Assembly (NCBI GenBank): GCA_947599755.1 | Contig: CANQFO010000003.1 | Span: 1-34,004, forward strand | Direction: 5' to 3' | Source of the DNA: an uncultured Bacilli bacterium | GTDB taxonomy: Bacteria; Bacillota_I; Bacilli_A; RF39; UBA660 | Length of the DNA stretch: 34,004 bases | Shown here: piece after piece, positions 1 to 24,426 of the stretch | Layout: the number at the start of each line of letters is the position of its first letter | Position numbering within the stretch: position 1 is the first letter of the stretch | Program-made: the position numbers and the translations under genes | Notes under the pieces: model-generated | Database searches by the model: none | Told to the model about the DNA's origin: nothing | What the model saw: only the letters and a program-made list of their open reading frames with translations

Positions 1-2
1 CC

Positions 3-638
3 CCAGAAGTAATTAAAAATACAAATATCAAGTTAGTTCACCGATTAACATCAGGAGATGATCGAGAACTAATTGGAAATACAATGTCTGCAACTCCTAT
101 GCAAGTCGATGCCATGGCAACATTAACACAAGGTGGAGCATTCATGAATTATGAGGGATTATTAAGACCTTTTCAATTACAAGTTCATTATACGAAAGAA
201 CATGATATCCCTGCACCAAGCAATTATGAATTATATGATATTATGGATAAAATAGGAACGTATCATCAATTAAAAATGGGAATGATTGAACGAGAAGGAA
301 AAGGAATTATCAACTCAATCGAACACCTATATTTAGGTCTTGATGCCTTTTATCATCATTTAGAAACATATCAATATGAAGAACCAGGATTAGAAAATAA
401 AATTAAACAAATGAATATTATTGTTGAAGAATACCGAAAAGAATTAATTAAAATTCAAGATCAATATCTTGAATATTTGACCAAAACAGAAAATCATGAA
501 AATTTTGAAAATCAAAAGAAATCGATTAGTGAACAAATTCAAATTGCTTCTGCTCAATTTATGAACATCGTGGAAAAAAACAAAAAATTAGTTGCTATAA
601 AAATAGATCAAATGAGAAAAGAAGGGATAGAAATATGA
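3..638 (+). CDS. HerA/DUF87-like (FtsK-HerA superfamily) ATPase, C-terminal part; 5'-truncated by the window
   Basis: The frame is open from nt 3, upstream of the track start at 84. It reads PEVIKNTNIKLVHRLTSGDDRELIGNTM...ATLTQGGAF...P, the typical end of a HerA/VirB4-type P-loop domain, followed by a helical tail. Walker motifs lie outside the window. Confidence 0.75.
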   Translation, partial: PEVIKNTNIKLVHRLTSGDDRELIGNTMSATPMQVDAMATLTQGGAFMNYEGLLRPFQLQVHYTKEHDIPAPSNYELYDIMDKIGTYHQLKMGMIEREGKGIINSIEHLYLGLDAFYHHLETYQYEEPGLENKIKQMNIIVEEYRKELIKIQDQYLEYLTKTENHENFENQKKSISEQIQIASAQFMNIVEKNKKLVAIKIDQMRKEGIEI

Positions 639-1120
639 AAAATCATAAAATGACTATTGAAGAGATTAGAAAAGAGCATATGGAAGTAGGAGAAAGAGTT
701 ACGGATACGCAAAATAAATATAAAAAAGCTAAAGAAAATGAAAGAATTGCTGCTAATTTAAAAGAGACAATTGAAAATACGGATTTGCCAGAAGATTATC
801 GAAATTCTTTGCGAAGTAAATTTGCTGAAGCTTCGGTGCAATTTACTGATGCCAAAAATGAATTAAAAGAAGAATTGAATACGTTGCAAAAAAGGACTAA
901 TGAGTTACAAGAGATTGCGAATGAAACAGCGAAAGATATATCAGGAGCGAAAGAGGATATTAGTAAAGTAGGAACAAAAGATGATGATCGTAATATTATC
1001 TTAAAGTTAAGACAAAAATTAGTAGAAACCAGTAATGGTGAATTTAATGAATGGCAACATCAAGAGCAAGATTTTGCTAGAATGAATAAAGAAGTAGAGC
1101 AAATGAAAGATAATTTATAA
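635..1120 (+). CDS. Small all-helical coiled-coil protein (161 aa), paralog of the next gene
   Basis: ATGA overlap with the upstream stop. Heptad-rich, no TM segment or signal peptide. Confidence 0.8.
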   Translation: MKNHKMTIEEIRKEHMEVGERVTDTQNKYKKAKENERIAANLKETIENTDLPEDYRNSLRSKFAEASVQFTDAKNELKEELNTLQKRTNELQEIANETAKDISGAKEDISKVGTKDDDRNIILKLRQKLVETSNGEFNEWQHQEQDFARMNKEVEQMKDNL

Positions 1121-1133
1121 AGGTGGTATAAAA

Positions 1134-1607
1134 ATGAAAGGATTAGATGCTAGAGCAACCCGTCAAAAAATCGAAAGTCTTAAAGAAAAAACAGAAACAG
1201 AAGATCAAAATATAGATAAGCTAAATCGTAATAAAGATGCACTATCGGAGATGAAAAATTCCATTGAAGGGCTAGATGATTTTACTAGAGGATTACTAGA
1301 AAACGAAATTCAAAATTCCGAAACAGCCAATGATCAAGAAATCGCTCAATCTGAAACAAAAATAGAAAAAACCCAAGAAGAACTACAAGAAATAAGTAAT
1401 GAAGCAAATGAAAATTTAGAAAAAGTGAGTGATTCCAGTCAAAAAATTAATGAAATTGCTCAAGCAGCTAAAGAAACAGGATTAGATTTATCAAAAGTAA
1501 GCGATGTAGCCAATGAACAATTAAAAGATTGGAAAGAAGAAGCTCTAAATGCTGAAAATTTACAAAAAATGATGAATGCAGTTAGAGATAAATATCATCA
1601 TCAATGA
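1134..1607 (+). CDS. Small all-helical coiled-coil protein (157 aa)
   Basis: SD AAGGTGG upstream. Heptad-rich. Shares ELQEI[AS]NE and a spaced Trp with 635..1120. Confidence 0.8.
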   Translation: MKGLDARATRQKIESLKEKTETEDQNIDKLNRNKDALSEMKNSIEGLDDFTRGLLENEIQNSETANDQEIAQSETKIEKTQEELQEISNEANENLEKVSDSSQKINEIAQAAKETGLDLSKVSDVANEQLKDWKEEALNAENLQKMMNAVRDKYHHQ

Positions 1608-2347
1608 AAAAAACATTAACATTAGCTTTTTTCGGAGAAATTCCTTCATATACAGTAATGGCATCTATAGGTTTTTTAATTACAAGTGTAGTGATGCTCT
1701 ATTATGAAATAAAAGCTGGATATGAAATCAAAAAAATAACCAAAAAGCATATCATTTGTATTATTGGATTATTAATCGGAATGAAATTATTTGGTATGCT
1801 CTCAGTATTTTTAGATATGTTAATCAATAGTCGAAAAATTGATTTTTACGAAATTATCAATTCAGGAATTGTATTTTATGGAGGGTTACTAGGATATTAT
1901 ATAGTCAGAAGAATGATTACCAAAAACGAAATTAATAAAAGTGTCTTTGATATATTAGCCTTTTGTTTTCCTATGTTTTCAATATTTGGTAGAATCGGTT
2001 GTTTTTTGGCAGGTTGCTGTTACGGGATGCCTTCTCATTCTATTATTGCGGTTCCTATGCCATCAGAAAACGGTGAAATCATAAATCGTATACCGACACA
2101 ATTAATAGAAGCCCTGTTTAATGTAGGATTGACCATAACATTTATAATTTTATATCATAAAAAACAAAAAAAAGATGGGAAAAACGTTTATTGGTATTTT
2201 CTCTCTTATTCCATATTTAGATTTGTGATTGAATTCTTTAGAGGAGATAAAATCAGGGGAGTTTATGGAATATTGTCATTTAGTCAAATCATTAGTATTT
2301 TCTTATTCATATATAGTATTGATAAATTAAAAAAAAGGAGTGAGTAG
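1604..2347 (+). CDS. lgt: Prolipoprotein diacylglyceryl transferase (Lgt) family protein, Cys-type variant
   Basis: Multi-pass membrane protein with FYGGLLG, GRIGCFLAGCCYG, PTQLIEA, RFVIEFFRGD and LSFSQIIS motifs. ATGA overlap with the upstream gene. Confidence 0.88.
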   Translation: MKKTLTLAFFGEIPSYTVMASIGFLITSVVMLYYEIKAGYEIKKITKKHIICIIGLLIGMKLFGMLSVFLDMLINSRKIDFYEIINSGIVFYGGLLGYYIVRRMITKNEINKSVFDILAFCFPMFSIFGRIGCFLAGCCYGMPSHSIIAVPMPSENGEIINRIPTQLIEALFNVGLTITFIILYHKKQKKDGKNVYWYFLSYSIFRFVIEFFRGDKIRGVYGILSFSQIISIFLFIYSIDKLKKRSE

Positions 2348-2349
2348 TC

Positions 2350-4134
2350 GTGTTACAAATAATCATGAAAGGAATAAAAAGAGCCATAGCATATGGAATT
2401 ATGGTAGGAGGAGGAATTGCTGCAACAGGATATTTGGGAGTGGAATGTCTTGAATGTGCATGTGGTTCATGTATAGGATCATCAACCTATAGTAGTTGGA
2501 TTAATGCAGGGTTCTCCATTGGTTTGTTTGTGGGAATCATTGCTGCAATTTATGGATTTATTGCTGGAGTAGCTCAAGCATCAAGTGATGCTAAAGAAGA
2601 AAAGATCAATAATCAAAAAAAATGGGTTAATACTGTAAATAATGAAATAGCCAATATTAAAAATTTATTAGAATCAGGACAAAATGCAAATAATGAAATT
2701 CAAAGATGCCTAAATTATATAGGACAAACACAATTATGGATGGATAACAAATTTATTAGTAAAAATATAGAACCAGCAAGACAAAAACTAAAGAATCAAG
2801 TATTTGCTATTGATCAAATTAGTATGAATAATGAAGGGGCAGGGGAGTTAACGAAAGTCAAAAATATTTTAAACGCAAGAAATATTTTACAGTCTGAAAC
2901 TAATTATCAGAAAAAAATAAATAATATCAATCAATTACTGCAATATATAGGAAATGCTTCAAATGTTATTAGTATGTATCCTTATGGGAAATTAACGCCA
3001 AATTTTGAACAAAATCTAGAAAAATATAGTCAAGAAAAAAATTTATATGAAGATTTATTAGAAAAGGAAACTAAAATTTTTGAAAATGCTGTAGAACATG
3101 CTGAATTATTAACAAAAGAATTACTAGAAGAAATTGAAGTATGTATGTATCAAGTAGTAAGAGAAAAGCCATACAATGCTGATAAATTTAACAAAATTCA
3201 AGCATTTTATGATTTCTTTAAAAATAAATATGCCATTCAAGAAAAGTATGATGATATAGAAGTGATTACGATTAAAGCACCGGATAGTTTATATAATGAG
3301 TTATATACATACAAATCAATGGGAGAAAGTGTCGTTAATAGTAAGAAAAATTATATTATGGAACAAGTAAATAATCGAATTAATTATCAAATTCAAGGAT
3401 CAACAGCTTTAAATATTGCAGCGGCATTGAAGAATTTAGGGTTGTTTGAATTAGAAAAAGAAATTTTAATTAACTATGTGGGAAGAGGAATCCAAGTAAG
3501 TGATAAAATTCAAAATCGAATTCGATATTTAGAAACAGATACTAGAAATGGAAAAATTGGTCAAATTCATGAAATTGAAACACAAGGATTTGCTTATGAT
3601 TTTGCATCTAGTACTTGGAATGATGATGATATTCAAGCTTTCTTTAGGAATTTGGCTTATCAAGAAAAGAAATTAAATTATTCTTTAGTCATTGAAGATT
3701 GGAAGAAAACTTTACCAATATTAAGTAAAGTTCAATTATCAGATGAAATTATTTGTAGTGAATTAAAGAAAATGTTACAGGAAGAATATGATGGTGAAAT
3801 TGATTGTTCTGTAACTAAAACGATAGCTTTGTCAGAAAGTAGTAATGAAGAACAACAAGCCATTGTATTTCAAAGTAGTCATGAAGAATATAATCGAGAA
3901 ATTACTTTTATTTTAAGTTGTATTAAAGTAGGGAAAAACTTAAGTATTCGAATCTTTACTTTATTTACCCCAAGTACAAAAACTACTACTGAGCAAGATT
4001 TGAAAGAAGCTTTGACTATTAAGAAAGGATTAAATCCAAAAAATACTGCTTATATTGAGGGACTAAAAGAATCTATATTAGAAACTTTAGAAAAATACTT
4101 AAAAAAGGAAACAACATCTAATGATATTTATTAA
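2350..4134 (+). CDS. Hypothetical membrane protein: N-terminal Gly-rich hydrophobic hairpin with a CxxCxCxxC loop, then a large soluble region
   Basis: GTG start with AGGAG at 2336-2340. Two hydrophobic segments flank ECLECACGSC. 594-aa ORF. Confidence 0.75.
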   Translation: MLQIIMKGIKRAIAYGIMVGGGIAATGYLGVECLECACGSCIGSSTYSSWINAGFSIGLFVGIIAAIYGFIAGVAQASSDAKEEKINNQKKWVNTVNNEIANIKNLLESGQNANNEIQRCLNYIGQTQLWMDNKFISKNIEPARQKLKNQVFAIDQISMNNEGAGELTKVKNILNARNILQSETNYQKKINNINQLLQYIGNASNVISMYPYGKLTPNFEQNLEKYSQEKNLYEDLLEKETKIFENAVEHAELLTKELLEEIEVCMYQVVREKPYNADKFNKIQAFYDFFKNKYAIQEKYDDIEVITIKAPDSLYNELYTYKSMGESVVNSKKNYIMEQVNNRINYQIQGSTALNIAAALKNLGLFELEKEILINYVGRGIQVSDKIQNRIRYLETDTRNGKIGQIHEIETQGFAYDFASSTWNDDDIQAFFRNLAYQEKKLNYSLVIEDWKKTLPILSKVQLSDEIICSELKKMLQEEYDGEIDCSVTKTIALSESSNEEQQAIVFQSSHEEYNREITFILSCIKVGKNLSIRIFTLFTPSTKTTTEQDLKEALTIKKGLNPKNTAYIEGLKESILETLEKYLKKETTSNDIY

Positions 4135-4167
4135 TATATTTTAGTATTGTGGAGTATCAATATGATT

Positions 4168-4200
4168 GAATGATAGAAGAAATTTTATCATTCTTTTCTT
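4168..4200 (+). terminator. Rho-independent terminator closing the ATPase-lgt operon
   Basis: Stem gaatgatagaa / ttttatcattc (one G-U pair), GAAA loop, then a T-rich tract. Confidence 0.75.
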
Positions 4201-4253
4201 CTTTTTTTTCCTTTATTTTCTTTTTCTTATTTAGATTATTTTTCTAAAATATG

Positions 4254-4282
4254 TTGATGTCCTTTTCATTTATCGATATAAT
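4254..4282 (+). promoter_or_regulatory. Putative sigmaA promoter
   Basis: TTGATG-17 bp-TATAAT upstream of 4370. Confidence 0.55.
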
Positions 4283-4369
4283 GAATTTATACAGTTTATC
4301 GGGAATGAGGCATACAAAATTAAAGATTAGAACAAAATGGAAAGGTAAGTAAATTACCAGGAAGTAAAA

Positions 4370-5095
4370 ATGGAAAAAAAAGTTTACGAAACAAGAAAAG
4401 GGGTAGAAGAAATACTTTCTAACCAAACTAGTGAAGATACGATTGAGGTAATAGAAATTATGAACATCCTCGCTCCTATTGCCCAAAAATGGCAAAAATT
4501 ATTAAATGTATTAATTGAAGAATCAGAAGATTTTGATAATCATAGTAAGGTTCATAAAATTATTAAAAAAAATCATCAAGTAAAAAATTACTATGTATTG
4601 TATAGTGGAATATGGGATTATTTATGTATGGATATTGATCAAGAAGAAAGAGTAGAATTAGGGCAAAATTTAGCACCGTTAGGAATGGATTTTTTTGTTC
4701 AATATTTTGATCAAAAATATCTTGCCCATCCAGAAGTTATTTATTATTCACTAAATATTACTAAAGAAGGGTTAAAAAAGATATTTTACATTTTGGAAAA
4801 TAATCCAGAATTATTGGAAGAGCCAAAATTTTATTATCAGTTTAGAGGAGGCAATCAGGAAACTATTCGTTTTCTTTTCAATGCAACAACTGCGGAAGTA
4901 AGAATCAAAATAGAAAGTAAAGGAAAAGAATTAAGTGATTTATTTTTAGATAAAGGGTTAACCTTAATTGGAACATCAACTTCATTAAAAAATATAAACG
5001 ATTTTAAGCAAATGATAGATGATATTACTAAGATAAAATTACCGAAAAAAATTATTCCTAAAGTATATCAGAAAACAAAAGGAAAGAAGGATTGA
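4370..5095 (+). CDS. Hypothetical protein (241 aa)
   Basis: Long ORF with codon style like its neighbours, ending 4 nt before the next gene. No motif recognised. Confidence 0.65.
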   Translation: MEKKVYETRKGVEEILSNQTSEDTIEVIEIMNILAPIAQKWQKLLNVLIEESEDFDNHSKVHKIIKKNHQVKNYYVLYSGIWDYLCMDIDQEERVELGQNLAPLGMDFFVQYFDQKYLAHPEVIYYSLNITKEGLKKIFYILENNPELLEEPKFYYQFRGGNQETIRFLFNATTAEVRIKIESKGKELSDLFLDKGLTLIGTSTSLKNINDFKQMIDDITKIKLPKKIIPKVYQKTKGKKD

Positions 5096-5099
5096 AATT

Positions 5100-6332
5100 A
5101 TGGAAAAGATAACAGTGATTGGAGGAGGAGCTTCTGGATTAATTGCAGCTATTTATGCAAAAACAGAGAATAATGAAGTAACGATATTAGAAAGAAATCC
5201 AGAATGTGGGAAAAAAATTTTGATCACTGGTAATGGTAGATGTAATTATTGGAATCAGGATCAAGCATTTATCCATTATCATAGTAAGAATCAAGAAAAA
5301 ATATCTTCTATTTTAACTAAAGAAAATCAACAAGAAATATTATCTTTTTTTGATCAAATAGGAATCATTCCTAAAATTAAAAATGGTTATTATTATCCAT
5401 TTTCTAATCAAGCAGTAACCATTCAACATGCTTTAATTCAAGAAGCAAAAAAGAAAAATGTAACGATAATCAAAAATTGTTTAGTAACCAAACTAACAAA
5501 GAACAAAGATAAATTTTTTCTTACTACTTCTATGGGAAAAATGGAATCAGATAAAGTAATCATTGCAACAGGATCATATGCTCATCCCAAAACAGGATCA
5601 ACAGGAATTGGATATGAATTAGCCAAAAAAATGAATCATACTATTATTCCTCCTTTACCATCGTTGGTTCAATTAAAAGCGGATTTAGGATCACTAAAAA
5701 AGTGGAAAGGAATTAGAACAGATGCTATTTTAACCTTAATCGAAGATGATCAGGAAATCAGACAAGAGCAAGGAGAAGTTCAATTAACAGAATATGGAAT
5801 TAGTGGAATATGTACGCTAAATTTAAGTTATCATGTTGCAATAGGATTAGCATCAGGAAAAAAAGAAAGGATTAAACTTAATTTTTTTCCATTTTTCCCT
5901 TCCCAATCACCAAAGCAAATTCAAGATTGGTTGAGCGAAAGAGAAAAAAGATGTCCTGATGATACGTTAGGAGAATCATTAGAAAAAATTCTCAATTATC
6001 AATTAGTTGATGTATTATTGCATGATAATAAAGAGCAAAAAGAAAAAAAATGGCATCAATTAACAGAACAAGAACAAGAACAAATCATAAAAAAAATTAC
6101 GGCTTTAGAAATTAGTATGATTGGAACAAATTCTTTTGAAGAAGCTCAAGTATGCAGTGGAGGTGTTCCTTTAACTGAGATTAAGGTAGAAACAATGGAA
6201 TCTCAAAAAATCAAAAATCTTTATTTTACGGGAGAAATATTAGATGTTGTCGGAGACTGTGGAGGATATAATTTAAGCTTTGCCTGGATATCTGGAATGC
6301 TAGCAGGTAAAGCAGTAAGGAGTAATCAATGA
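5100..6332 (+). CDS. HI0933/YhiN/BaiN-family NAD(P)/FAD-dependent flavoprotein
   Basis: VIGGGASG, GKKILITGNGRCN, ATGS...GSTGIGY, SGGV, LYFTGEILDVVGDCGGYNLSFAWISG. Confidence 0.93.
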   Translation: MEKITVIGGGASGLIAAIYAKTENNEVTILERNPECGKKILITGNGRCNYWNQDQAFIHYHSKNQEKISSILTKENQQEILSFFDQIGIIPKIKNGYYYPFSNQAVTIQHALIQEAKKKNVTIIKNCLVTKLTKNKDKFFLTTSMGKMESDKVIIATGSYAHPKTGSTGIGYELAKKMNHTIIPPLPSLVQLKADLGSLKKWKGIRTDAILTLIEDDQEIRQEQGEVQLTEYGISGICTLNLSYHVAIGLASGKKERIKLNFFPFFPSQSPKQIQDWLSEREKRCPDDTLGESLEKILNYQLVDVLLHDNKEQKEKKWHQLTEQEQEQIIKKITALEISMIGTNSFEEAQVCSGGVPLTEIKVETMESQKIKNLYFTGEILDVVGDCGGYNLSFAWISGMLAGKAVRSNQ

Positions 6333-12275: not shown

Positions 12276-13619
12276 ATGAAAAAGAAAAAAATAATAATAG
12301 GTTTAATCCTATTGACATTATTAATCGCTTGTATATTATTTTTCTTAATCAGTGGAAGAAAATATACGGTGACATTTAATTCAAATGGTGGTACAGCAGT
12401 TGAATCAATTAAAGTAAAGAAAAACCATATGATAGAAGAACCAAAAAATCCAACCAAAAAAGGTTATCAATTTGCAGGATGGTACTTCAATAATAAATTA
12501 TTTGATTTTAAAACAAAGATAACCAAAAATATCACACTAAAAGCACATTGGCAATCTAATGGTATTGAATTAGAATCAGATCATTTAAATTTAGTAGTTG
12601 GATTAGAAGATGAAATAAAAATTTTATCTTTACCTGATGGGATAACGATCGAGGATTTAGTATTCACATCTAGCGATGAAAGTATTGCTACCGTTTCCCA
12701 AGATGGAAAGATAAAAGCTTTAAAAAATGGTACGGTTACGATAACCGTTAAGTCTAAAGATAATCAATATCGTGCTAAATGTAAGATAACGATAACAGAG
12801 AAAAAAATTGAGATTAAAGATATTTCTATAGATGGTGCTAGTTCTTTAGTAGTTGGAAGCAGTATTCAATTAACGGTAAAAATTAGTCCTGATGATGCTA
12901 CAAGAGAGAAGATGATGTGGAAAAGTAGTGATCCTTCTATTGCAACAGTTGATGAAAACGGTAATGTAAAAGGAGTAAAAGCTGGAAAAGTAACGATTAC
13001 CGTAACAACAGAAAATGGAAAAACAGCAACTAAGACAATCACCATAAAAGCTAAACAAACATCATCAAATAATAATAATAATGGTGGACAACCAAATCCT
13101 CCAAGTGTACCAAAAGAAATCTTACCAACAAATGTTAGCATTAGTGGAGGAAGTAATACGATGTATGTAGGAGATAGAGGAAGACTAACTGCTAATATTA
13201 CTCCAGGAGATGCTAATGATAAAGGGGTATCATGGAGTAGTAATAATGCTAGTGTTGTATCAGTAGATGGTAGTGGAAATATCGTCGCAAACGGTGTAGG
13301 ACAAGCTACGATAACCGTACGAACCAATGCTGGAGGAAAAACAGCAACCATTACTATAACAGTTATAGAAAGACCTGCAAGCTATAGTATAATCTTAACC
13401 CCAATTAAACAAGAAGGAACAGGAAGTATTGCTGAATATACGTTTGTAGTGATGAAAAATGGAAATACCTTTAATGAATATATAGGATTTGAATACGGTG
13501 GAGGAGAAATTCATAATGGTGGAGGTACAGTCTTAGCAAAATTTGTTGGTGGAGGAAGTGCAACCCTTATTTTAAATGATTATTCAAGAGTTTCTGTCAG
13601 TGTAATCATCAATAATTAA
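12276..13619 (+). CDS. Surface protein: N-terminal TM anchor, InlB B-repeat, three Big_2 (bacterial Ig-like) domains
   Basis: YTVTFNSNGG...PTKKGYQFAGWY...LKAHW, then three [FW]xS[SN]xx[SI].A/V.V..G.....G...ITV units. Asn/Pro linker before the third. Confidence 0.88.
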   Translation: MKKKKIIIGLILLTLLIACILFFLISGRKYTVTFNSNGGTAVESIKVKKNHMIEEPKNPTKKGYQFAGWYFNNKLFDFKTKITKNITLKAHWQSNGIELESDHLNLVVGLEDEIKILSLPDGITIEDLVFTSSDESIATVSQDGKIKALKNGTVTITVKSKDNQYRAKCKITITEKKIEIKDISIDGASSLVVGSSIQLTVKISPDDATREKMMWKSSDPSIATVDENGNVKGVKAGKVTITVTTENGKTATKTITIKAKQTSSNNNNNGGQPNPPSVPKEILPTNVSISGGSNTMYVGDRGRLTANITPGDANDKGVSWSSNNASVVSVDGSGNIVANGVGQATITVRTNAGGKTATITITVIERPASYSIILTPIKQEGTGSIAEYTFVVMKNGNTFNEYIGFEYGGGEIHNGGGTVLAKFVGGGSATLILNDYSRVSVSVIINN

Positions 13620-13637
13620 AGGAAAGGAGTATATCAA

Positions 13638-16600
13638 ATGATGAAGAAATGGAAATTAAAATTTTTCCTAGCAATTGTTTTCTTTTTAGGATTTTCTAGC
13701 CCTGTATTTGCCAAAGAAATGACTTTAGAAGAATTAGGAAAATTAATTGATGAAAAACAACCTAATGCAAATCATGCTTTTGTTATTGGAAAATATGTTT
13801 TTACCTCACTATATGAAAATAACGGAAAAAAAGGTTTAGATACTAAAGATATTATGTTAGCAGCAAGAAGTATAGAAACTTTAACGGGTGATGGGGAAAT
13901 TCATACCGATAAAATTTATGAAAAAATGAAAATTCACCAAATCACGAAAAAAATGAGTTCTGACTGGAAAAGCCATACTTGGGAGAAAGAAAGCGATTAT
14001 GTTGGTGGAGGAGAAGCTCCAGATACTTATCAAATTCGCTATATTGATTATCAATTTATTCCAGAGGAAACAAAGGCTAAAGTTGAATTGACAAATTCTA
14101 ATGATGAAAAATATAAAAAAATAATTGAAGAGGATTTAAAATTTACAGGTGGTAACAGTAGTAATAGCCAAAATTTACAATTATCAGACGATTGGAAATT
14201 AACTGGGTTATTATTAAAAAATACTACAGTCGATGATAGCATTTTTAAAGATGATGAAAAGACCGGATATTATTTTGCTCTTTCTATAAAAGCACCTAAA
14301 GCTACAGATAAAACAATCATTAAGGTAAAAGGAGCAAAAAAAGAGAAAAAATTTACCTATGATAAATTTGATATAAAAAATGGAGAAGATAACACTGATC
14401 CTGGTATTGCTTTTCTATATTCTGTTGATCCAAAGAAAAAAGATGATAAGAAAAAATTAGAAATTACTGTCGATTATGATGGAGAAGATAGCCAAGAATA
14501 TGCTCCTACTATTTATACCATAGATTATAGTGGAATAACTTTTCAAGAAGATTCAAGAGTAGAAAATATTGGTTTAGGATCAGAAAATGCAACTGATCAA
14601 GATAAGAATATAATAAAAGATTGGGGCTATGAAGAAAATAAAAATAAGAGTCTAACTCTTTCTCTTGATGATCAGAATCATTTCACCTATAACCTAAAAG
14701 GTACTTTAATCGAACAAATGCTAAATAGTGCAAAAGCTTTTGGAGAAAAAAATAAATTAGGATATTATTTTGATTTCACCTTTGTTTTACCAGAAGGCAG
14801 CAATAAAAATAATGTAAAAATTAGTCAAGTAAATGATGAGCAAGGAAGCAAGGAAACAAAAATTTTTCAACCTGATGAGTTTGATGAAAAAAATAATTTA
14901 ACTATATTATTTAGATTTAAACCAGAAACCACAAAATGTACAAATCATTGCAAAATATATTATAAAGTGGATTTAGATGGAGAAGGAAAGAAATATTTAC
15001 CAGTTATTTATAGCATAGATTATAGTGGAGTAACCTTTGAAAAATCATCTGTCTTTACTGTTGAAGGAATAACTGATGAAGATAAAGATGAATATGATAA
15101 TTCAAATTGGTATGATACAAATAATGGTTATTCTGTTCAAGTAGAAAAAGATCAGAATGAAGAAAAAAAATATCATATAACAGGTGTTTTACCAATATTT
15201 AATGATGAAGAAAAGGATTTTAACTCTCTACATACTTTTGACACAGAAAAAGAACTATATTATTTAGGCTTACTATTAAAGTTAAGCAATGCTGAAAAAA
15301 TACAATCTGAGAACAGTGAAGCCATAACCGTTAAATTTTTCCATAATGATGGTAGTTCTGATGATCAATTCTTAAAAGTAACAGCTGATGATTTTGAAAG
15401 TTCTCATAAACTTTACCTATTAAAAGCATTATGCGAGATTGCTGCTGATTCGAGTAGTACAATTCCTGATTCAGAAAAAATCTTTACCATTACTGTAGAT
15501 TTAGATGGAGATGAAGAGACATATGCTCCATATACGGTTACTATTGATTGGAGTGGGTTAGTATTACAAAAAAAATCTAGTGGAAATTCTAAAAATTATG
15601 ATGTAGTTCTATCTGAAGAGGATTTGGGTACTGATACAAAAGCCAAAGAAGAATTAAAAAGTTATGGATATCAATATGAAAATGATAGGGATATATCTCT
15701 AAAAGAGGGAACAAAAGACTTAACAGGTACGATTAAAGAACAAAAATTAAAAGAAACAGCAGGATTTAAAGATGACAATAAAGGTTATTTTGTCCCAATA
15801 AAAGTTGAATTTCCTGGAAAAGATAATCCAAAATTAAAAGATTATGCAGACAAATGGACACTAATACTAAATACCGAAGATAATCGGACATTTGAATATC
15901 AGCCAAGTAGTGAAGAATATCAACAAGGATGGGTAATGGTATTATTTAAAATTTATCGTGATACTAAGACAGAAATCAAATACCAAATTGACTTTGATGG
16001 ATTACCTAAAGATGGTAAAGGATATAATTTTGTTCCTGAAGATTATCAAATTAGTTATGCTGATTTAGCATTCAAAACAGCAAATCAGATAAAATTTAAC
16101 TATACAGATAAAAACGGAAAACAACAATCAGAAACAGCCATAATTTATGAAGGAGAACAATTAGGTCATGATTTAGCAGCAACTCAAAATATGGATTATC
16201 GTACTTTTGATGGTTGGTATAACCAAAGTGATAAAGTAGAAGTAGAAAAAGTATTAGAAAAAGATGAAGATTTAGAGTTAACTGCTCATTGGAAAATTAA
16301 TTCAGAAAAATTTATATCCGAAGTAATTACAGATTTAAATAGTTCAGATGAGACTTATTCTAATGATTTTTCAAAAAAATTTAACTTAACTCAAAATGAT
16401 GAAAATAAGAAAGAAATTACCATAAATATTGAGAGAGCAAAAGTACCATTAACAGAATTAGCAGAAACCAGTATTCCTGGAGCAATTGCTTATGCCTTAC
16501 AAACTGAGGAAATTAAAGATATTACTTTAACGGCTGGAAAAAGCAATTCTGTAACATTTAAAAAAGATTATACAAATAATTCCCAAACCTATGATAAAAC

Positions 16601-18947
16601 TGCTGATAGAGATGAAAAATTATTAGGAAAAGAAGGTACTTTATTAAAGAAAGAAATTATTAAAGGAACAAAAGAAATCTTCAATAAAGAATTAGAAGAA
16701 AAAGAAGAAACTGCTACTTTAGATCAATTAGAATATATGGATAAATCATTTTCTATTCAAATAGGAACTGTTGATAATACCGTTACATTAGTAAAAGATG
16801 ATGGAACAGAAATCAAAGACGGTACAGATAAAACATATACATTTAAATTTGACTCTGATTTTGTTGTCGTAGATGAAGAGGAAGAACTTGGTGCTACGGA
16901 TATCCGTACCGCATTAACTAGTGCAAAAAATTATCATACCATTTATGTTGATGGTAATCTAAACTTAAGTAAAACATTAGATATTAATGCTACAGATGAA
17001 GTAGTGATAAAACCAGTAGATGCTACTTCAAAAAACAAAACAATAACCGTTTCTAATCAAGATTATGCAATTGATGTAAAATCAGGAACAGTAAATATTT
17101 CTAATTTAAAAATTACTGGAGGAAAAAAAGCAGAATTAAGAATTGAAGAAGGAGCAAATGTTACTGTTGATAATATTGATGTTTCTGGTAATATTACTCC
17201 AGTGGAATCAAAAGATGAAAAAATGCATGCTGGAATTATTGTAAGAGGTAATTTAACGATAAATTCTAAAATAACAAATGAAAACGAGAAATATGGATTA
17301 CCTACCGTTGCTACAGTTACTAGTTATTCCTATCCAACTGATAAAGAGTTAGAAGGAGAAAGACATGATGATGAAACGTTAGCTAAAGCTGCTACGATAA
17401 ATGATCAATCTAAAATGGCAAAAAATGATAGATATCATATCGTTAAGAGAAATGAAGAAACACATATTGATTTATTTATAGAGACATATTATGGTTCTTT
17501 CTACTATAATAATCCAAATAATGCTAAAATTTATTTAGCCGGAATTATCGATCAGGAAAAAGCTTCTCCAGGACCTTATGATTATATTAAAATTTATTAT
17601 TATGATGAAGATTTTGATTTAAGTGGTTTGGGTTATCAAGAGAATCAAACACCTACTGGTGTTTCTCCAGAAAAAGTCTTTAAAAACTTTACATTGAATG
17701 ATAAGGTAATCAAGGGTGATGGTTCAGAAAAAGTTCAAAATATATTGAATGTTGCAGATACTGCTCATATCGTTGTTAATTATCAACCAAAACCATCCGC
17801 AACTCTTACCTTCCAAAATACTGATGGATTAGAGGGAAAAGAAAATCGTGTTTCTGGAACTTTAAAAACACAAAGCGAAGATGGCAAATACTATATACCA
17901 ATTACGTTAAAATCAGAAAAATTTCAAGATAATCAAACAACAATTCAAATTACTAATCCAAATGGAGAGTCAAAAACTTATACTTATAGTTCAACGAATG
18001 AAGATGGAATTGTTGCGAAAATCAGTACAGATAAAACGATTCATTTAAATTTAGAAGCAATTAAATCTTCTCAAATAACTGGAGAATATGGTAAAGTTTA
18101 TACCATTATCCTTGATATAGATGGAAATGATACCAAGTATCAAGAAGAAACTTATACCGTTGATTATAGCCAAGTTACTACTTTGGAAGAAATCATTAAT
18201 ACCGCTGCAGAAAAAACAGAAGCAGCAAATAGTTTAACTTATACGAATAATAGCAAGGTTAAAGATAATGAAATGAAATATACTTATCGCTATGATAAAG
18301 AAAAAGGATTAACCTTATATAATGACGAAGAATATTCTTTTCAAATTAATAAAGTAGATTCTACTCATGAAGGAACAGCTAGCCTTGTATTGAGAAAATT
18401 AACTGATTCATATCCAGGATCAGATGAAAGACCAACAATTAATGGTTGGGAATTTAGTAATCAAATTCAACGAATAGGCATGGGAATTTATGAATTACAA
18501 TTATTTATTGATATGAAAAATAATCGTGCAATTAAAGACGTAGTGAAAAAAGAAAATCATACATACGAAGTTACTTTAGATGGGAAAAGTGTAGCCTCTT
18601 GGTTAAATATTTCTTATATTGGTAATCCTGCAAAGGGCAATAATCCAACAACGGATAATCATCAAGAAATAGAAGATACAGTAAAATTAACTGTAGTATT
18701 GGACGAAAAAGATCAATACGTTAAAAGTTTTAAAACCAATCAAAACTTTGCGATTAATGATACCTATCCAGATAATCATATCGATGTTACCATTAATCAG
18801 ATTAATGAAACAACGATTGATGATCCATATACAAAATTAGGAAAAGGTAGTAAACTTACGAAAGAAGAAATCATGGAATTTTATCAGAAAGTTATCCAGT
18901 GGCGTAAAGACCACAATGATGTAGAGATAGCTGGAACAGCTGAGTAA
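13638..18947 (+). CDS. Giant secreted multidomain protein (1769 aa) with five copies of a beta-rich repeat (tandem period ~165-175 aa)
   Basis: Sec signal ending VFA|KE. Repeated GYYF...D[YLFI]DG...Y.[IV]DYS motifs, an InlB-B-like unit (FDGWY...LTAHW), and a possible beta-helix segment. No LPXTG or C-terminal TM. Confidence 0.82.
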   Translation: MMKKWKLKFFLAIVFFLGFSSPVFAKEMTLEELGKLIDEKQPNANHAFVIGKYVFTSLYENNGKKGLDTKDIMLAARSIETLTGDGEIHTDKIYEKMKIHQITKKMSSDWKSHTWEKESDYVGGGEAPDTYQIRYIDYQFIPEETKAKVELTNSNDEKYKKIIEEDLKFTGGNSSNSQNLQLSDDWKLTGLLLKNTTVDDSIFKDDEKTGYYFALSIKAPKATDKTIIKVKGAKKEKKFTYDKFDIKNGEDNTDPGIAFLYSVDPKKKDDKKKLEITVDYDGEDSQEYAPTIYTIDYSGITFQEDSRVENIGLGSENATDQDKNIIKDWGYEENKNKSLTLSLDDQNHFTYNLKGTLIEQMLNSAKAFGEKNKLGYYFDFTFVLPEGSNKNNVKISQVNDEQGSKETKIFQPDEFDEKNNLTILFRFKPETTKCTNHCKIYYKVDLDGEGKKYLPVIYSIDYSGVTFEKSSVFTVEGITDEDKDEYDNSNWYDTNNGYSVQVEKDQNEEKKYHITGVLPIFNDEEKDFNSLHTFDTEKELYYLGLLLKLSNAEKIQSENSEAITVKFFHNDGSSDDQFLKVTADDFESSHKLYLLKALCEIAADSSSTIPDSEKIFTITVDLDGDEETYAPYTVTIDWSGLVLQKKSSGNSKNYDVVLSEEDLGTDTKAKEELKSYGYQYENDRDISLKEGTKDLTGTIKEQKLKETAGFKDDNKGYFVPIKVEFPGKDNPKLKDYADKWTLILNTEDNRTFEYQPSSEEYQQGWVMVLFKIYRDTKTEIKYQIDFDGLPKDGKGYNFVPEDYQISYADLAFKTANQIKFNYTDKNGKQQSETAIIYEGEQLGHDLAATQNMDYRTFDGWYNQSDKVEVEKVLEKDEDLELTAHWKINSEKFISEVITDLNSSDETYSNDFSKKFNLTQNDENKKEITINIERAKVPLTELAETSIPGAIAYALQTEEIKDITLTAGKSNSVTFKKDYTNNSQTYDKTADRDEKLLGKEGTLLKKEIIKGTKEIFNKELEEKEETATLDQLEYMDKSFSIQIGTVDNTVTLVKDDGTEIKDGTDKTYTFKFDSDFVVVDEEEELGATDIRTALTSAKNYHTIYVDGNLNLSKTLDINATDEVVIKPVDATSKNKTITVSNQDYAIDVKSGTVNISNLKITGGKKAELRIEEGANVTVDNIDVSGNITPVESKDEKMHAGIIVRGNLTINSKITNENEKYGLPTVATVTSYSYPTDKELEGERHDDETLAKAATINDQSKMAKNDRYHIVKRNEETHIDLFIETYYGSFYYNNPNNAKIYLAGIIDQEKASPGPYDYIKIYYYDEDFDLSGLGYQENQTPTGVSPEKVFKNFTLNDKVIKGDGSEKVQNILNVADTAHIVVNYQPKPSATLTFQNTDGLEGKENRVSGTLKTQSEDGKYYIPITLKSEKFQDNQTTIQITNPNGESKTYTYSSTNEDGIVAKISTDKTIHLNLEAIKSSQITGEYGKVYTIILDIDGNDTKYQEETYTVDYSQVTTLEEIINTAAEKTEAANSLTYTNNSKVKDNEMKYTYRYDKEKGLTLYNDEEYSFQINKVDSTHEGTASLVLRKLTDSYPGSDERPTINGWEFSNQIQRIGMGIYELQLFIDMKNNRAIKDVVKKENHTYEVTLDGKSVASWLNISYIGNPAKGNNPTTDNHQEIEDTVKLTVVLDEKDQYVKSFKTNQNFAINDTYPDNHIDVTINQINETTIDDPYTKLGKGSKLTKEEIMEFYQKVIQWRKDHNDVEIAGTAE

Positions 18948-18974
18948 AAGGTGTGATATTTATACCACACCTTT
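18947..18974 (+). terminator. Stem-loop after the giant gene (terminator or mRNA stabiliser)
   Basis: aaaggtgtg / cacaccttt perfect 9-bp stem with only a short U tail. Confidence 0.55.
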
Positions 18975-18997
18975 ATCTAATGAAATGAGGAGTAGAC

Positions 18998-19540
18998 ATG
19001 AAAAAAATAATAATAATTTTTCTTGCAATATTTTTATGTATTCCAATTGTATCCAATGCTGTTGCTACTAATTCATCTAGTTTTGCAAAAGAAAAGATTT
19101 ATATACTATATGATAGTAGTAATTGTAAAGAATGCAATCAATATAAAGAAACATTGGAAGAATATTATAAAAACGATAATCGCGTATATATAGAATATAT
19201 CTCTGTTGATAAGAATCAAGAATTAGTAAAAAAGATCAAAAAAAATTTAAATATCAAGCGTGATAAATTTCCCATAACTATTATTGGTACTACTTATTTT
19301 AAGGGATTCAATCAGAGAATAATGAAAAAAATAAAAAGGGCGGTTCAAAATTATCAAAAAGAAGATAAATATTGTGATATTGTTGATAGTATAAAAAATC
19401 AAAAAAATATAGAAAAATGTCTAAAAGATAATCAAGGAATAAATCAAGAAAATCACATGATTATCGTAATTGGATTAATTATAATAGCAATCTTGATTTG
19501 TTTAATAAGTTTTAAGAAAAAGAAAATGAAATCTAAGTAA
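18998..19540 (+). CDS. Exported thioredoxin/glutaredoxin-fold protein with C-terminal TM anchor
   Basis: Signal peptide, IYILY..SNCKEC (CxxC), cis-Pro-like FPITIIG...F.GF, then a C-terminal TM and basic tail. Confidence 0.75.
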   Translation: MKKIIIIFLAIFLCIPIVSNAVATNSSSFAKEKIYILYDSSNCKECNQYKETLEEYYKNDNRVYIEYISVDKNQELVKKIKKNLNIKRDKFPITIIGTTYFKGFNQRIMKKIKRAVQNYQKEDKYCDIVDSIKNQKNIEKCLKDNQGINQENHMIIVIGLIIIAILICLISFKKKKMKSK

Positions 19541-19689
19541 ATATTCATTTTCTTTTTCTACATGAATGAAAAATAAAAAGCTAAGATTTGACAAGTCTTC
19601 AAATTAAAACAGTTAAAAGATAAAGAGAAAACAAACAAAGTTTTAGATAAAAAGAGGAAGAAGAATAATAAAATATTATTGAATAAAAG

Positions 19690-19718
19690 TTGCATAAAGT
19701 TGAAAAATAATATATAAT
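19690..19718 (+). promoter_or_regulatory. sigmaA promoter of the SipW operon
   Basis: TTGCAT-17 bp-TATAAT. Confidence 0.7.
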
Positions 19719-19788
19719 CTAATTAAAGATAAGAAAAAAAACTAGATATTCTTATCCAAAGAAAAATTAGAAAGTAGAGGAAAGATTT

Positions 19789-20334
19789 ATGCAAAAAGAT
19801 CGAAAAATAAGAGCAATGGCCATTACGATTATAGGAATAGCAGTCATAGGATTATCAATTGGATATGCAACACTAAGTCAAGTATTAAATATTTCAGGTA
19901 CAGCAAACATAAAAGGTCAAAATTGGGATGTAGTATTTGAGGATTTAAAAGAACCAACAGCCAATGACGGATTAGTAGGATCAGCAAAAGGAGTGAGTGC
20001 AAGCTTAACCACCACAACCCTAAGTTTTGCAGCAGAATTAAGCTTACCAGGAGATGCAATTACTTATCGCTTCAAAGTAGCAAACAACGGAACAATTGAT
20101 GCAATTTTAAGTGAAGTACCAGTATTATCTGGATTATCAGAAGCTCAAGCTCAAAATGTAGTATATGAATTTACTTATGAAGATGGAACACTAATTAAAG
20201 CAAACGATGAATTACCAGCAGGAGAAACAAAAAATTTAAAATTAGTAATTAAATTTGATGCAGATGCAACAACAGTATCAGAAGAAGATAAACAATTATC
20301 TTTATCAACTACAATGAACTATGTTCAAAAATAA
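19789..20334 (+). CDS. TasA/camelysin-like protein with SipW-type signal peptide (putative major fibre subunit)
   Basis: Hydrophobic leader ending SIGYA|TLS, and PGDAITYRFKVANNGTIDA motif. Adjacent to sipW. Confidence 0.72.
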   Translation: MQKDRKIRAMAITIIGIAVIGLSIGYATLSQVLNISGTANIKGQNWDVVFEDLKEPTANDGLVGSAKGVSASLTTTTLSFAAELSLPGDAITYRFKVANNGTIDAILSEVPVLSGLSEAQAQNVVYEFTYEDGTLIKANDELPAGETKNLKLVIKFDADATTVSEEDKQLSLSTTMNYVQK

Positions 20335-20358
20335 AAAAGAATAAAGTGGTGACCAGCA

Positions 20359-21498
20359 ATGAAAAAAAGTCAAATAAAAATGTTGGGATTAGAAAGTGTC
20401 ATAATGATTGGGTTAATCATCAATGCACTTTTCATAAAAAAATTCGAACTAACAAATTTGGCCAATATCATTGTATGGTCATTCATTGTTCTATGCACGA
20501 AATATTTAATTGGAATCGAAAAAGACAAAAGTCTAAATCGAATAGATACAATTCAAATTATTTTTATTTATACCTTTTTATATCTATTAATCATGTATTT
20601 AATTGGAGTAGGAGTAGGATTTAACCGAAATCCATATAAAATTACAATACTGAATATCATAAAAAATATTACCCCTTTATTAATAGTGATTACAGCTCAA
20701 GAAATATTTCGATTTAATATTACAATAAAAGGAAAAGATAATAAATTGGTAATTACAGGATTAATTTTACTCTTTATTAGTATGGATATCATGTTTAATT
20801 TTAAATATTATAGTTATACAAGTGGATTAGAAATTTTTGAAGTAATTGGAATTTTAATTTTACCAAGTATAGCAGATAATTTGATATTAACCTTTATTAC
20901 TTCAAAAAGTGGATATTCCCCTACGATTATATATCGACTAATGTTAGCAAGTAGAAATTACTTAATACCAATTATTCCAGATTTAGACATTTATCTAGAA
21001 TCAGTATTAAAAATTGTTTTTCCAACAATTTTATTTTTGAAATTTAATACAATATATGCAAAAAACAAATTTACACTAGCACCAAGAAACCAATTAGGAA
21101 AACATATCATGACAACAACAATGACTGCAGTAGCAATAGCATTTATCGCTCTAGTTTCAGGAATATTTAGATATTATGCAATTTCCATTGGATCAGAATC
21201 AATGGAACCAAACATAAAAAAAGGAGATGCCGTAGTTTTAGAAAAAATAGAAAAAGTAGATAGAGAAAAAGAAGTAAAGAAAGGAGTCATTATTGCTTAT
21301 CGCCATGGTAAGAAAGTAATTGTTCATAGAATTAATAAAATAGAAGAAAAAAATGGAGAAAAGCAAATCACAACCAAAGGAGACAATAACGAAGTAGTAG
21401 ATAATTGGATAGTAGAAGAATCTGATATATTGGGAATAGTAAGAGCAAAAATTCCCGTAATTGGATGGCCATCCGTATGGTTAAGTGAAAGATTATAA
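20359..21498 (+). CDS. sipW: SipW-type (S26B, Ser-His) signal peptidase I fused to a multi-pass N-terminal membrane domain
   Basis: GSESMEP.IKKGD, IVHRI, TKGDNN..VD, IPVIGW. About 250 aa of hydrophobic helices precede the catalytic domain. Confidence 0.85.
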   Translation: MKKSQIKMLGLESVIMIGLIINALFIKKFELTNLANIIVWSFIVLCTKYLIGIEKDKSLNRIDTIQIIFIYTFLYLLIMYLIGVGVGFNRNPYKITILNIIKNITPLLIVITAQEIFRFNITIKGKDNKLVITGLILLFISMDIMFNFKYYSYTSGLEIFEVIGILILPSIADNLILTFITSKSGYSPTIIYRLMLASRNYLIPIIPDLDIYLESVLKIVFPTILFLKFNTIYAKNKFTLAPRNQLGKHIMTTTMTAVAIAFIALVSGIFRYYAISIGSESMEPNIKKGDAVVLEKIEKVDREKEVKKGVIIAYRHGKKVIVHRINKIEEKNGEKQITTKGDNNEVVDNWIVEESDILGIVRAKIPVIGWPSVWLSERL

Positions 21499-21512
21499 AA
21501 GGAGGAAATAGT

Positions 21513-22565
21513 GTGAAACAAAAGCAAAAAAAGAAATTCATTATCAATAAAAAATGGATACCAAACATAGTTTTATTAGGAATATCAATTATCTTAACGA
21601 TTGCTTTTGCACTTTTTTCTCTAATGAAAAATAGAGTAGAAAAAGTAACATACACAGAAAATAGTAATATAGACTACATGGTATGTTTAAAAAAGAATAA
21701 TTATTTCAAAGAAAAATGTTTAGACAATACCAAAAATTCTTATGTTGCAGATATCTTAGATTATATAACACTAGATTTTTCTTATTTCATGAACGTATCA
21801 ACAAAAATAGATCAAGAATATAACTATAATATTACAGCCAAAATTTTAGCAACAGATAAAGAAGATTCTAGTAAAGTAGTATACAACAAAACAACAACTT
21901 TAGTAGAAAATAAAAAAGTAAACGACAATTCTAAATCAATTGCTAATATGAAAGAACAAGTAAAAATTAATTATGCTGATTACAATGATATAATTACCAA
22001 TTTTAAAAAAGACTATGTTTTAGCACTCGATGCCAATTTAATTATTACGATGAATATTAATTACAAAGGAAAATATAGCAAAGATTTTGATGAAATCAAC
22101 ACAGCAAAACAAATGAGCGTAACAATTCCTCTTTCTGAACAAATGATTACCATAACAACCAGTACAAAAAAAGAAAATAAAACAAGTATCTTAGAGAAAA
22201 AAGAAAAAGGAAAAACAGATAAAATAATAATGAAAGGATTAATTGGATTAGATGCTATTTTAGCAGGAATATTGATTTTTTCCATTATGAAAAGCCTTCC
22301 ATATAAAAAAGAATATCTAAAAGAATTAGAAAAAATATTAAAAGAATATGATCGAGCCATCGTATCAACAAACAATTTACCAAGCTTTAAAAATCATAAT
22401 CAAATAGAAGTACCAACTTTTGAAGAATTACTTGATGCAAGAGAAAACTTAGAACGACCAATATTATATTACCAATCTAAAACAGAAGATAAAGTAATTT
22501 TCTGCATTATGGCAAACAAAGAAGTCTATATTTATACACTAGAAGCAAAGGATAAAAAATCATGA
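21513..22565 (+). CDS. DUF5305-like membrane protein
   Basis: GTG start with GGAGG. TM, large extracellular domain, TM, then cytoplasmic tail EVPTFEELLDA...ERPILY. This layout is typical next to sipW. Confidence 0.68.
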   Translation: MKQKQKKKFIINKKWIPNIVLLGISIILTIAFALFSLMKNRVEKVTYTENSNIDYMVCLKKNNYFKEKCLDNTKNSYVADILDYITLDFSYFMNVSTKIDQEYNYNITAKILATDKEDSSKVVYNKTTTLVENKKVNDNSKSIANMKEQVKINYADYNDIITNFKKDYVLALDANLIITMNINYKGKYSKDFDEINTAKQMSVTIPLSEQMITITTSTKKENKTSILEKKEKGKTDKIIMKGLIGLDAILAGILIFSIMKSLPYKKEYLKELEKILKEYDRAIVSTNNLPSFKNHNQIEVPTFEELLDARENLERPILYYQSKTEDKVIFCIMANKEVYIYTLEAKDKKS

Positions 22566-23794: not shown

Positions 23795-23850
23795 TACAAT
23801 TGAAAAAATATCAAAAAATGATATCATAAGAAAGAAACAAGAGGTGTAAA

Positions 23851-24408: not shown

Positions 24409-24426
24409 CAAGAAAAGGTGATTGTA

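Follow-up and report, generated by a model that had tools for sequence, protein, structure and literature searches.

What is encoded by a compact bacterial operon in which a variant diacylglyceryl transferase gene stands directly before the gene of a membrane-anchored protein with cysteines in its hairpin? The question is raised by the start of contig CANQFO010000003.1 (C3) of an uncultured Bacilli bacterium, of which a stretch of 34,004 nucleotides (the window) was analyzed. The source assembly, GCA_947599755.1 (G000), comprises 1.15 Mb in 128 contigs and is 91.5% complete. In an earlier note on this DNA an ATPase pump, a pair of helical proteins and a lipid transferase acting on the last gene product had been proposed to form one undescribed export or conflict machine. 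Comparison with related loci placed the window genes as the 3' four-fifths of an operon built around a HerA-type ATPase and the last gene product (P594), and the transferase paralogue (Lgt2) was found to track cysteines in the P594 hairpin. Loci, genomes and representative proteins used in the comparisons carry the prefixes L, G and P.

Gene order, conservation and distribution

Five closely packed open reading frames (ORFs) lie on the + strand at the start of the window, with the layout taken from the ORF list. The first (3..638, 5'-open) is cut because the window begins at the contig end; it encodes the C-terminal 211 residues of the ATPase, comprising the end of the ATPase domain and a C-terminal helical extension. 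It is followed by helA (635..1120, 161 residues) and helB (1134..1607, 157 residues), both encoding helical or coiled-coil proteins, the latter lineage-specific and lying in a variable middle slot. The gene of Lgt2 (1604..2347, 247 residues), a divergent extra Lgt paralogue with an active-site motif of the 'C..CC' type, and the gene of P594 (2350..4134, 594 residues, GTG start), the membrane-anchored signature protein, complete the set. Four-nucleotide ATGA overlaps at 635-638 and 1604-1607 and intergenic gaps of 13 and 2 nt agreed exactly with the tight coupling described in the earlier note, which had also placed one closing terminator behind the five genes. An 11-bp A+T-rich hairpin (4168-4193) followed by a T-rich run is visible there (4168..4211, + strand), but the terminator consensus scan of 1-5200 returned 0 terminator-like sites and the fold of the hairpin was ordinary (z -1.42; 17 of 200 shuffles folded equally well). 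As an intrinsic terminator the hairpin is only plausible.

Related loci were obtained by scans (6 from genomes, 26 from metagenomes and 1 from a viral contig). The metagenome scan utilized a 25-sequence P594 alignment, and the 32 genome and metagenome loci were annotated with profiles built from the first six loci. A DUF87/HerA-type ATPase of ~850-880 residues was encoded upstream of the P594 family, on the same strand, in 27/27 loci with enough upstream DNA, the remaining five (L021, L026, L029, L037 and L040) lying too near a contig end for this test. In 26 of the 27 assessable loci the gene immediately following that of the ATPase matched the helA profile; helA is absent from a two-gene form in G614 (L088), in which an 848-residue ATPase is followed by a 506-residue P594 (L088:5892-7412, - strand) of the single-helix M-[DE]-x-C-C type, without helA and Lgt2. 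Besides the window, the helB profile matched only in L011 and the decayed L012. Lgt2 is lacking in six distinct assessable multi-gene loci as well as in the two-gene form, and some loci (L023, L026 and the L031 group) carry two P594 paralogues. The ATPase and the P594 family, whose members have ~500-650 residues, form the invariant core, to which helA is added in nearly every case; helB and Lgt2 occur as options, and Lgt2 with a Cys-hairpin P594 marks one sub-type. The genes very probably constitute one conserved module: the gene combination recurs in other genomes and, of the members first listed for it, the ATPase, P594 and helA proved recurrent, whereas helB and Lgt2 did not prove fixed.

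The HerA-like identity read from the truncated first gene was borne out only indirectly, through orthologues. No Pfam family was matched by the 211-residue fragment itself, which is 81% identical to residues 666-876 of an 876-residue protein of L011. This orthologue contains PF01935 (DUF87/HerA central domain; 31.9 bits against a cut-off of 23.2) and has a Walker A motif at residue 380; across the L011, L013 and L014 orthologues the same family scored 25.5-32.5 bits. The orthologous ATPases have a single P-loop domain and no transmembrane (TM) segment. Their ~340 N-terminal residues match no Pfam family, and for this part the ESM Atlas offered a DUF8128 lead at 0.90 and otherwise clusters without a name. 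A sequence search of solved structures with the L011 ATPase returned nothing. The best PADLOC matches of the full-length proteins were defence ATPases (mad8 at 63-70 bits, HerA models weaker), and among NCBIfam models the DNA-translocating ATPase CedD matched best, at 61 bits where the cut-off is 600.

The two helical proteins had been described as a pair. Both gave only weak, sub-threshold matches of coiled-coil type (Pfam, PADLOC, NCBIfam), with PADLOC yielding coiled-coil noise only on the window proteins (E at least 8e-4), and neither matched WXG100, LXG or another secretion-substrate family in Pfam. Their coiled-coil-like character thus held, but their mutual similarity was marginal (BLASTP E 0.017) and helB is no conserved partner. 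The slot between helA and P594 is variable in content, holding helB here and other genes elsewhere. In L013, L015, L016, L019, L022 and L024 it encodes a protein of ~200-300 residues with a conserved HExxH motif together with a ~70-85-residue partner (slots at L013:7309-8264; L015:7524-8320; L016:8220-9184; L019:3661-4918; L022:8981-9876; L024:6702-7603); in the partner a conserved F-G-Y-x-P...D-Y-x-C motif was observed. The HExxH protein in the slot of L039 (L039:7481-8245) matches a phage head-morphogenesis PHROG (E 1e-15), and the slot gene of L020 (L020:7681-8223) matches the PF15644 papain-fold glutamine deamidase toxin family (E 4e-13) and is followed by a 93-residue ORF that could encode its immunity partner. 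Longer coiled-coil proteins occupy the slot of L014 and L018.

The operon is rare and moves laterally. Among the 400 genomes sampled across the phylum, 3 matched the P594 profile, G000 included, and hosts of loci include Clostridia-type metagenome-assembled genomes (MAGs) and one Olsenella MAG (Actinomycetota). Integrase, serine-recombinase or IS66 genes flank L011, L013, L015, L016, L020, L022, L024 and L026. An M48 peptidase, a TrwB/TraG-type coupling protein and a Replic_Relax (relaxase-like) protein are encoded downstream in common at L013, L016 and L019; a restriction-modification gene of MmeI type abuts L014, a Fic gene lies near L039, and Sel1-repeat genes recur near module loci. L012 and L042 are decayed copies in which the ATPase and P594 genes are split into several short frames. 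Searched by tblastn, P594 gave no match against phage records or 72,556 plasmid records and appeared at a single locus among 2.9 million viral contigs, so that carriage by phages or plasmids is not typical of the module within these collections. Among 200 other genomes of the order the ATPase fragment was matched in one (G105), in an unrelated context; the genes alongside it encode SPFH-like and zinc-ribbon proteins, and this candidate was rejected as belonging to another system.

Lgt2 and the hairpin cysteines of P594

Lgt2 contains a full-length LGT domain (PF01790, E 8.4e-37, 127.2 bits, cut-off 24.9; residues 12-239 aligned to profile positions 10-235 of 240), in keeping with the variant lgt described previously, and five Kyte-Doolittle (KD) hydrophobic, TM-like segments were detected in it. 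Against TIGR00544 it scored 94.9 bits, under the equivalog cut-off of 118.9, compared with 215.6 bits for the canonical copy of G000. The latter is located on contig C30 between uvrA-like and yvcK-like genes and has a Pfam score of 241.8 bits and the classical G-R-W-G-N-F-F-N-S-E motif. The window copy is hence not the only lgt of its genome; a sole lgt with randomly varying neighbours would have told against the module. The housekeeping reading of Lgt2 was rejected on account of the canonical gene. In G000, G202 and G204 a canonical N..E-motif Lgt (about 238-242 bits) occurs with a module copy (112-131 bits); G203 and G205, whose modules are without Lgt2, have the canonical Lgt only.

Alignment to the E. 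coli enzyme (PDB 5azb) and the canonical paralogue placed the equivalents of R143, G154, Y235, R239 and E243 in Lgt2, with Y202, R206 and E210 invariant as the equivalents of Y235, R239 and E243 of TM6. The equivalents of N146 and E151 are Cys and that of H103 is Tyr, likewise in all 10 aligned module Lgt2 proteins. Lgt2 thereby departs from the signature motif G-R-x-G-N-F-x-N-x-E-x-x-G with N146 and from H103-GGL, keeping the R and the final G. In the available part of PMC13251419, N146 and the H103-GGL motif residues are called essential for the E. coli enzyme, distant Lgts are described with N146C and E151C/D substitutions, and an N146C Lgt of Leptospira partly complements E. coli, so N146C Lgts can be active.

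The full-length model of P594 (predicted local distance difference test (pLDDT) 91.4, predicted TM-score (pTM) 0.77) begins with a two-helix hairpin; a very long stalk helix, a bundle of helices and helical repeats come next, and an alpha/beta domain forms the C-terminal part. C33, C36, C38 and C41 (2446..2472, + strand), the proposed Lgt2 site identified from sequence and model, lie where hairpin helix 1 ends on its outer side, in a low-pLDDT turn between predicted helices 2-37 and 47-108, which confirmed the designation as a Cys-hairpin protein. These Cys were placed extracytoplasmically because a positively charged N-terminus precedes hairpin helix 1, and most of P594 is predicted, from the charged N-terminus and the hairpin, to be cytoplasmic. 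The active site of Lgt works on the extracytoplasmic side, with which this topology agrees. Some family members end helix 1 in I-I-S-C or V-I-S-C, lipobox-like by eye (the rule given in the accessible part of PMC12462473 is [LVI][ASTVI][GAS]C); unlike in a classical lipoprotein, a second TM helix follows the Cys of P594.

For the comparison of Lgt2 with these Cys, near-identical copies, judged from identical gene lengths and scores, were counted once (L017=L018; L022=L025=L083; L030=L039; L031-36 with 38 and 41). The decayed L012 and L042 were left out and, from the Lgt2 test, also L026, L029, L037 and L040; L021 was kept because Lgt2 is visible there. This gave 11 distinct loci with Lgt2 (window, L011, L013, L015, L017/18, L019, L021, L023, L027, L028 and L030/39) and 7 assessable loci without it (L014, L016, L020, L022/25, L024, the L031 group and L088). 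In the former the Lgt2 gene immediately precedes that of P594, and a two-helix hairpin with at least one Cys at the helix-1 end or turn is present in 11/11, the turn Cys often in I/V-S-C or G-S-C context. A Cys hairpin is present in 0/7 of the latter, where the P594 N-terminus is a lone helix, lacks a helix, or forms a hairpin that has no Cys in its turn; in L016, Asp occupies the position of the Cys seen in its sisters L013 and L019. A quick maximum-likelihood tree was computed from 19 P594 proteins; to explain the presence of Lgt2 on it 5 changes were required, with well-supported branches forcing at least 4, and the label was not clustered (88 of 500 shuffles scored as low). P0013 is an intact 851-residue Lgt2::P594 fusion with an LGT domain (9-242), the C..CC motif and a full P594 with Cys hairpin. 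Judged from these sequences, Lgt2 probably acts on P594. The Cys co-variation, the repeated gain or loss and the natural fusion lend comparative support to the earlier proposal of a transferase directed at the last gene product, a lipid being what it would attach.

Enzymes of the same type were also surveyed outside the module. The C..CC motif is present in 118 of the 120 best Lgt2 homologues, out of 7,375 matches at E<=1e-10. In 151 genomes of the order of G202 the Lgt2 profile gave 35 matches of at least 145 bits in 34 genomes, the next being at most 118.5 bits. All 28 surveyed non-module Lgt loci (L055-L082) carry the motif, and in 24 of them the Lgt gene lies directly downstream of that of a small (84-231 residues) multi-TM protein with Cys in its last hydrophobic segment; 21 of the 28 have at least two TM segments and a C-x(1-4)-C cluster under a strict rule, and 4 are without such a small-protein neighbour. 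A further case was identified by eye (L052:8018-9266, - strand). DUF4190 was matched by 5 of 6 small proteins tested, only one above the gathering score, and among the papers listed in the literature search none combined DUF4190 with Lgt. A small Cys-tailed TM protein with a C..CC Lgt looks like a widespread two-gene cassette. As this second client family shares the Cys feature, it gives independent support for client-dedicated Lgt paralogues.

P594 itself belongs to an unannotated family. A profile search of 1.84 billion representatives returned 304 clusters at E<=1e-3, 150 of them at E<=1e-30, and a word search returned 4 close relatives. No family was found for P594 in the Pfam, NCBIfam, PADLOC or PHROGs libraries used; the relative P0005 carries the precomputed family PF27507, for which no paper was found in the literature search. 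Other members have one TM helix or none. In a distant sub-family (P0088, P0092, P0104, P0106) a single N-terminal TM helix opens with M-[DE]-x-C-C, a start seen in 10 of 123 full-length P594 representatives by a crude rule.

The C-terminal domain of the P594 model is a beta-sheet wrapped by long helices, of helix-grip-like topology. With P594 the ESM Atlas gave no usable match. Foldseek with the full model gave none at E<=1e-3, the top rows being uniformly SRPBCC/START/Bet v 1. The C-terminal 325 residues folded alone (pLDDT 85.2) placed the same superfamily on top (best E 1.1e-3), with nearly all of the top 50 rows SRPBCC/Bet v 1/START at TM-scores of 0.3-0.43. Superposition on Bet v 1/PR-10, StARkin and KA1 gave Z 5.4-6.7 and a root-mean-square deviation (rmsd) of 3.5-4.5 Å over 113-128 residues, and the weak but uniform Bet v 1/START/StARkin-like matches cover residues ~444-589. 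A wide VIA search returned mostly generic helical bundles for the full model (residues 81-178) and TPR-like folds for the C-terminal model (Z<=7.9). The modelled fold provides a lead that the domain may bind lipid or membrane.

Proposed mechanism and rival explanations

In the proposed explanation Lgt2 would transfer diacylglyceryl from phosphatidylglycerol, the lipid used by enzymes of the Lgt family, to one or more hairpin Cys of P594, and this lipidation would lock the hairpin to the membrane. With helA and helB as a bridge, the ATPase would bind P594 at its cytoplasmic stalk and control it. The assembly would serve as a conflict module of abortive-infection type, directed against phages or mobile elements and carried as cargo on integrative elements. 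Taken as a whole, this account of a lipid-locked, ATPase-controlled P594 in a mobile conflict module has in our estimate an even chance of being right, and the defence or conflict role considered separately falls somewhat short of that. A conflict role is favoured because the slot genes are enzyme-like (HExxH, PF15644, phage head-morphogenesis) and the best PADLOC matches of the ATPases are defence ATPases.

Several observations weigh against this explanation. The PADLOC mad8 and HerA matches are restricted to the generic ATPase core, and no meaningful PADLOC model match was obtained for P594, helA, helB or Lgt2. Housekeeping genes neighbour L018, L028, L036 and L039 and lie downstream of the module in the window, where the upstream side is missing, so that a recombinase could not be seen. 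The missing ~665 N-terminal ATPase residues were not found anywhere in the 128-contig G000 assembly, and this copy, cut by the contig end, may be incomplete. N146, essential in E. coli Lgt, is replaced by Cys in Lgt2, and an N146C paralogue of M. smegmatis is presumed weak in the available part of PMC13251419. The G-S-C of the window P594 is preceded by Cys, by eye a poor fit to a lipobox, and Cys-rich N-termini (the 'M-x-x-CC' single-helix form) also occur without any Lgt2. The co-variation has a base of 18 distinct, mutually related loci; one of the five tree changes falls on L026, whose contig begins inside a first P594 copy and which was later judged not assessable; and only one intact fusion is known, a second (P0047) being a deletion product. 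The match of the C-terminal domain to the helix-grip fold is weak, with scores below the level that the tool treats as trustworthy.

The transfer genes downstream of L013, L016 and L019 and the recombinases flanking many loci would also suit machinery by which an integrative conjugative or mobilisable element is transferred or maintained. P594 and helA would then tether a HerA/FtsK-type DNA translocase to the membrane, and Lgt2 would lipidate surface or transfer proteins of the element. CedD, the best NCBIfam match, translocates DNA, and plasmid lgt copies of Bacillota adjoin type IV secretion lipoproteins in the portion of PMC13251419 available. We nevertheless consider this reading unlikely: the CedD score is far under its cut-off, these elements already encode their own coupling ATPase, there are no transfer genes near L018, L028, L036, L039 or L088, and the plasmid records gave no match. 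L016 has the transfer genes of L013 and L019 yet no Lgt2; Lgt2 therefore tracks the Cys of P594 and not transfer genes. FtsK/HerA-family ATPases drive type IV and type VII secretion, and the pump of the earlier note would correspond to a type VII-like export machine in which the ATPase drives the helical proteins or a toxin through P594. Small helical proteins adjoin an FtsK/HerA-superfamily ATPase in both cases, and one locus encodes a member of a papain-fold toxin family. Type VII secretion combines a membrane-embedded, multi-domain ATPase of EssC/EccC type with WXG100-family substrates, whereas the module ATPases are single-domain proteins without a TM segment, helA and helB match neither WXG100 nor LXG, and P594 is no channel-like partner, having a two-helix anchor at most (one or no helix in other members) and a predicted mostly cytoplasmic body. 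The export proposal is accordingly not supported and is the least probable of the alternatives.

If the C-terminal domain of P594 binds or moves lipid, the module could instead serve membrane homeostasis, with the ATPase powering or regulating the process and Lgt2 supplying the anchor, and without a conflict role. The uniform, though weak, Bet v 1/START/StARkin and KA1 matches, the membrane anchor of P594 and the use of phosphatidylglycerol by Lgt-family enzymes agree with such lipid handling. The untrustworthy fold scores and the very patchy distribution do not, and decayed copies, recombinase neighbours and enzyme-like inserts fit accessory conflict cargo better than physiology; we hold it to be about as improbable as the transfer machinery. 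Lgt2 might also be no more than a spare Lgt of general function carried along by the element, in which case its place beside P594 would mean nothing. Second copies are common (~1,300 genomes with two lgt copies in the part of PMC13251419 seen) and the C..CC type is a very large subfamily. A spare enzyme would not be expected to follow the Cys hairpin in 11/11 against 0/7 loci, to be repeatedly gained or lost on the P594 tree, to be fused to P594 in P0013 or, in the same motif type, to pair with Cys-tailed small membrane proteins in 24/28 other loci, and this reading is less probable again than lipid handling.

The conflict-module explanation was compared with characterized systems. In SIR2-HerA and DUF4297-HerA a HerA/FtsK ATPase likewise stands beside a non-ATPase partner, as in the two-gene form of the module, and, as far as the partial sources extend, these systems are similarly patchy and island-borne; HerA models match the module ATPase core weakly. 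The module partner is instead membrane-anchored and has no SIR2, DUF4297 or nuclease domain, and no SIR2 or DUF4297 effector was found in the window proteins or scanned neighbours. The module ATPase has an unrelated ~340-residue N-terminal region and a helical tail, and helA, variable-slot and Lgt2 genes are added. Of the MADS system, mad8 matches over the ATPase core (~285 of 314 profile positions) within a ~870-residue module ATPase, and no other MADS component was matched by module neighbours.

Canonical E. coli Lgt (PDB 5azb/5azc) has in common with Lgt2 the full-length LGT domain and the five retained residues, but differs in N146, E151 and H103 and in reaching the TIGR00544 cut-off. Lgt2 is an extra copy abutting a non-lipoprotein hairpin protein and would not serve the general lipoproteome. 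The plasmid lgt copies of PMC13251419 are likewise second copies on mobile elements, and the Cys at the N146 and E151 positions has counterparts in the N146C and E151C/D substitutions of distant Lgts; the part of that source available describes no HerA-type operon, hairpin substrates or DUF4190 pairs. In the literature search no paper joining a diacylglyceryl transferase with DUF87 and nothing relevant linking HerA or defence with Lgt was found. The statement that no named system has this composition therefore stands, none having been returned by PADLOC on the proteins or by the literature search.

Neighbouring genes in the window and wider significance

Directly after the module, a 241-residue ORF (4370-5095) with its own promoter-like site upstream was observed. 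It has no family, its sole match being a sub-threshold one to Lnb_N (E 5e-4), and it was not seen in the module at other loci. A run of + strand genes at 12276-24873 encodes a Big_2/Flg_new surface protein, a 1769-residue ORF without a Pfam family, a protein with an S24-type peptidase domain, a DUF5305 protein, a LamG-like protein and several unannotated ORFs, and may be a surface-structure or secretion cluster. At 25252-30688 the genes of a PD-(D/E)xK nuclease and a UvrD-type helicase overlap as an ordinary AddAB-like pair.

In bacteria, Lgt is regarded as one housekeeping enzyme that serves lipobox proteins, and C..CC paralogues are currently annotated as ordinary Lgt. The tracking of Lgt2 with the Cys of P594, together with the 24/28 parallel pairs, provides a testable argument that membrane proteins other than lipoproteins are lipidated in a client-specific manner. 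We tentatively suggest, as an idea more doubtful than the action of Lgt2 on P594, that C..CC Lgts are a widespread, unrecognized class of client-dedicated lipid transferases, encoded beside their clients, P594 here and small DUF4190-type membrane proteins elsewhere, and attaching diacylglycerol to Cys at the outer end of a TM helix, and that in this operon the modification arms or positions a membrane effector belonging to a new conflict system of HerA type. If true, bacterial protein lipidation would extend outside the signal-peptide/lipobox pathway to polytopic or hairpin proteins. A defence or conflict role, if borne out, would define a new HerA-type system with a membrane-anchored partner from an unannotated 304-cluster family. 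Lgt is discussed as an antibiotic target, for which functionally distinct paralogues would be relevant.

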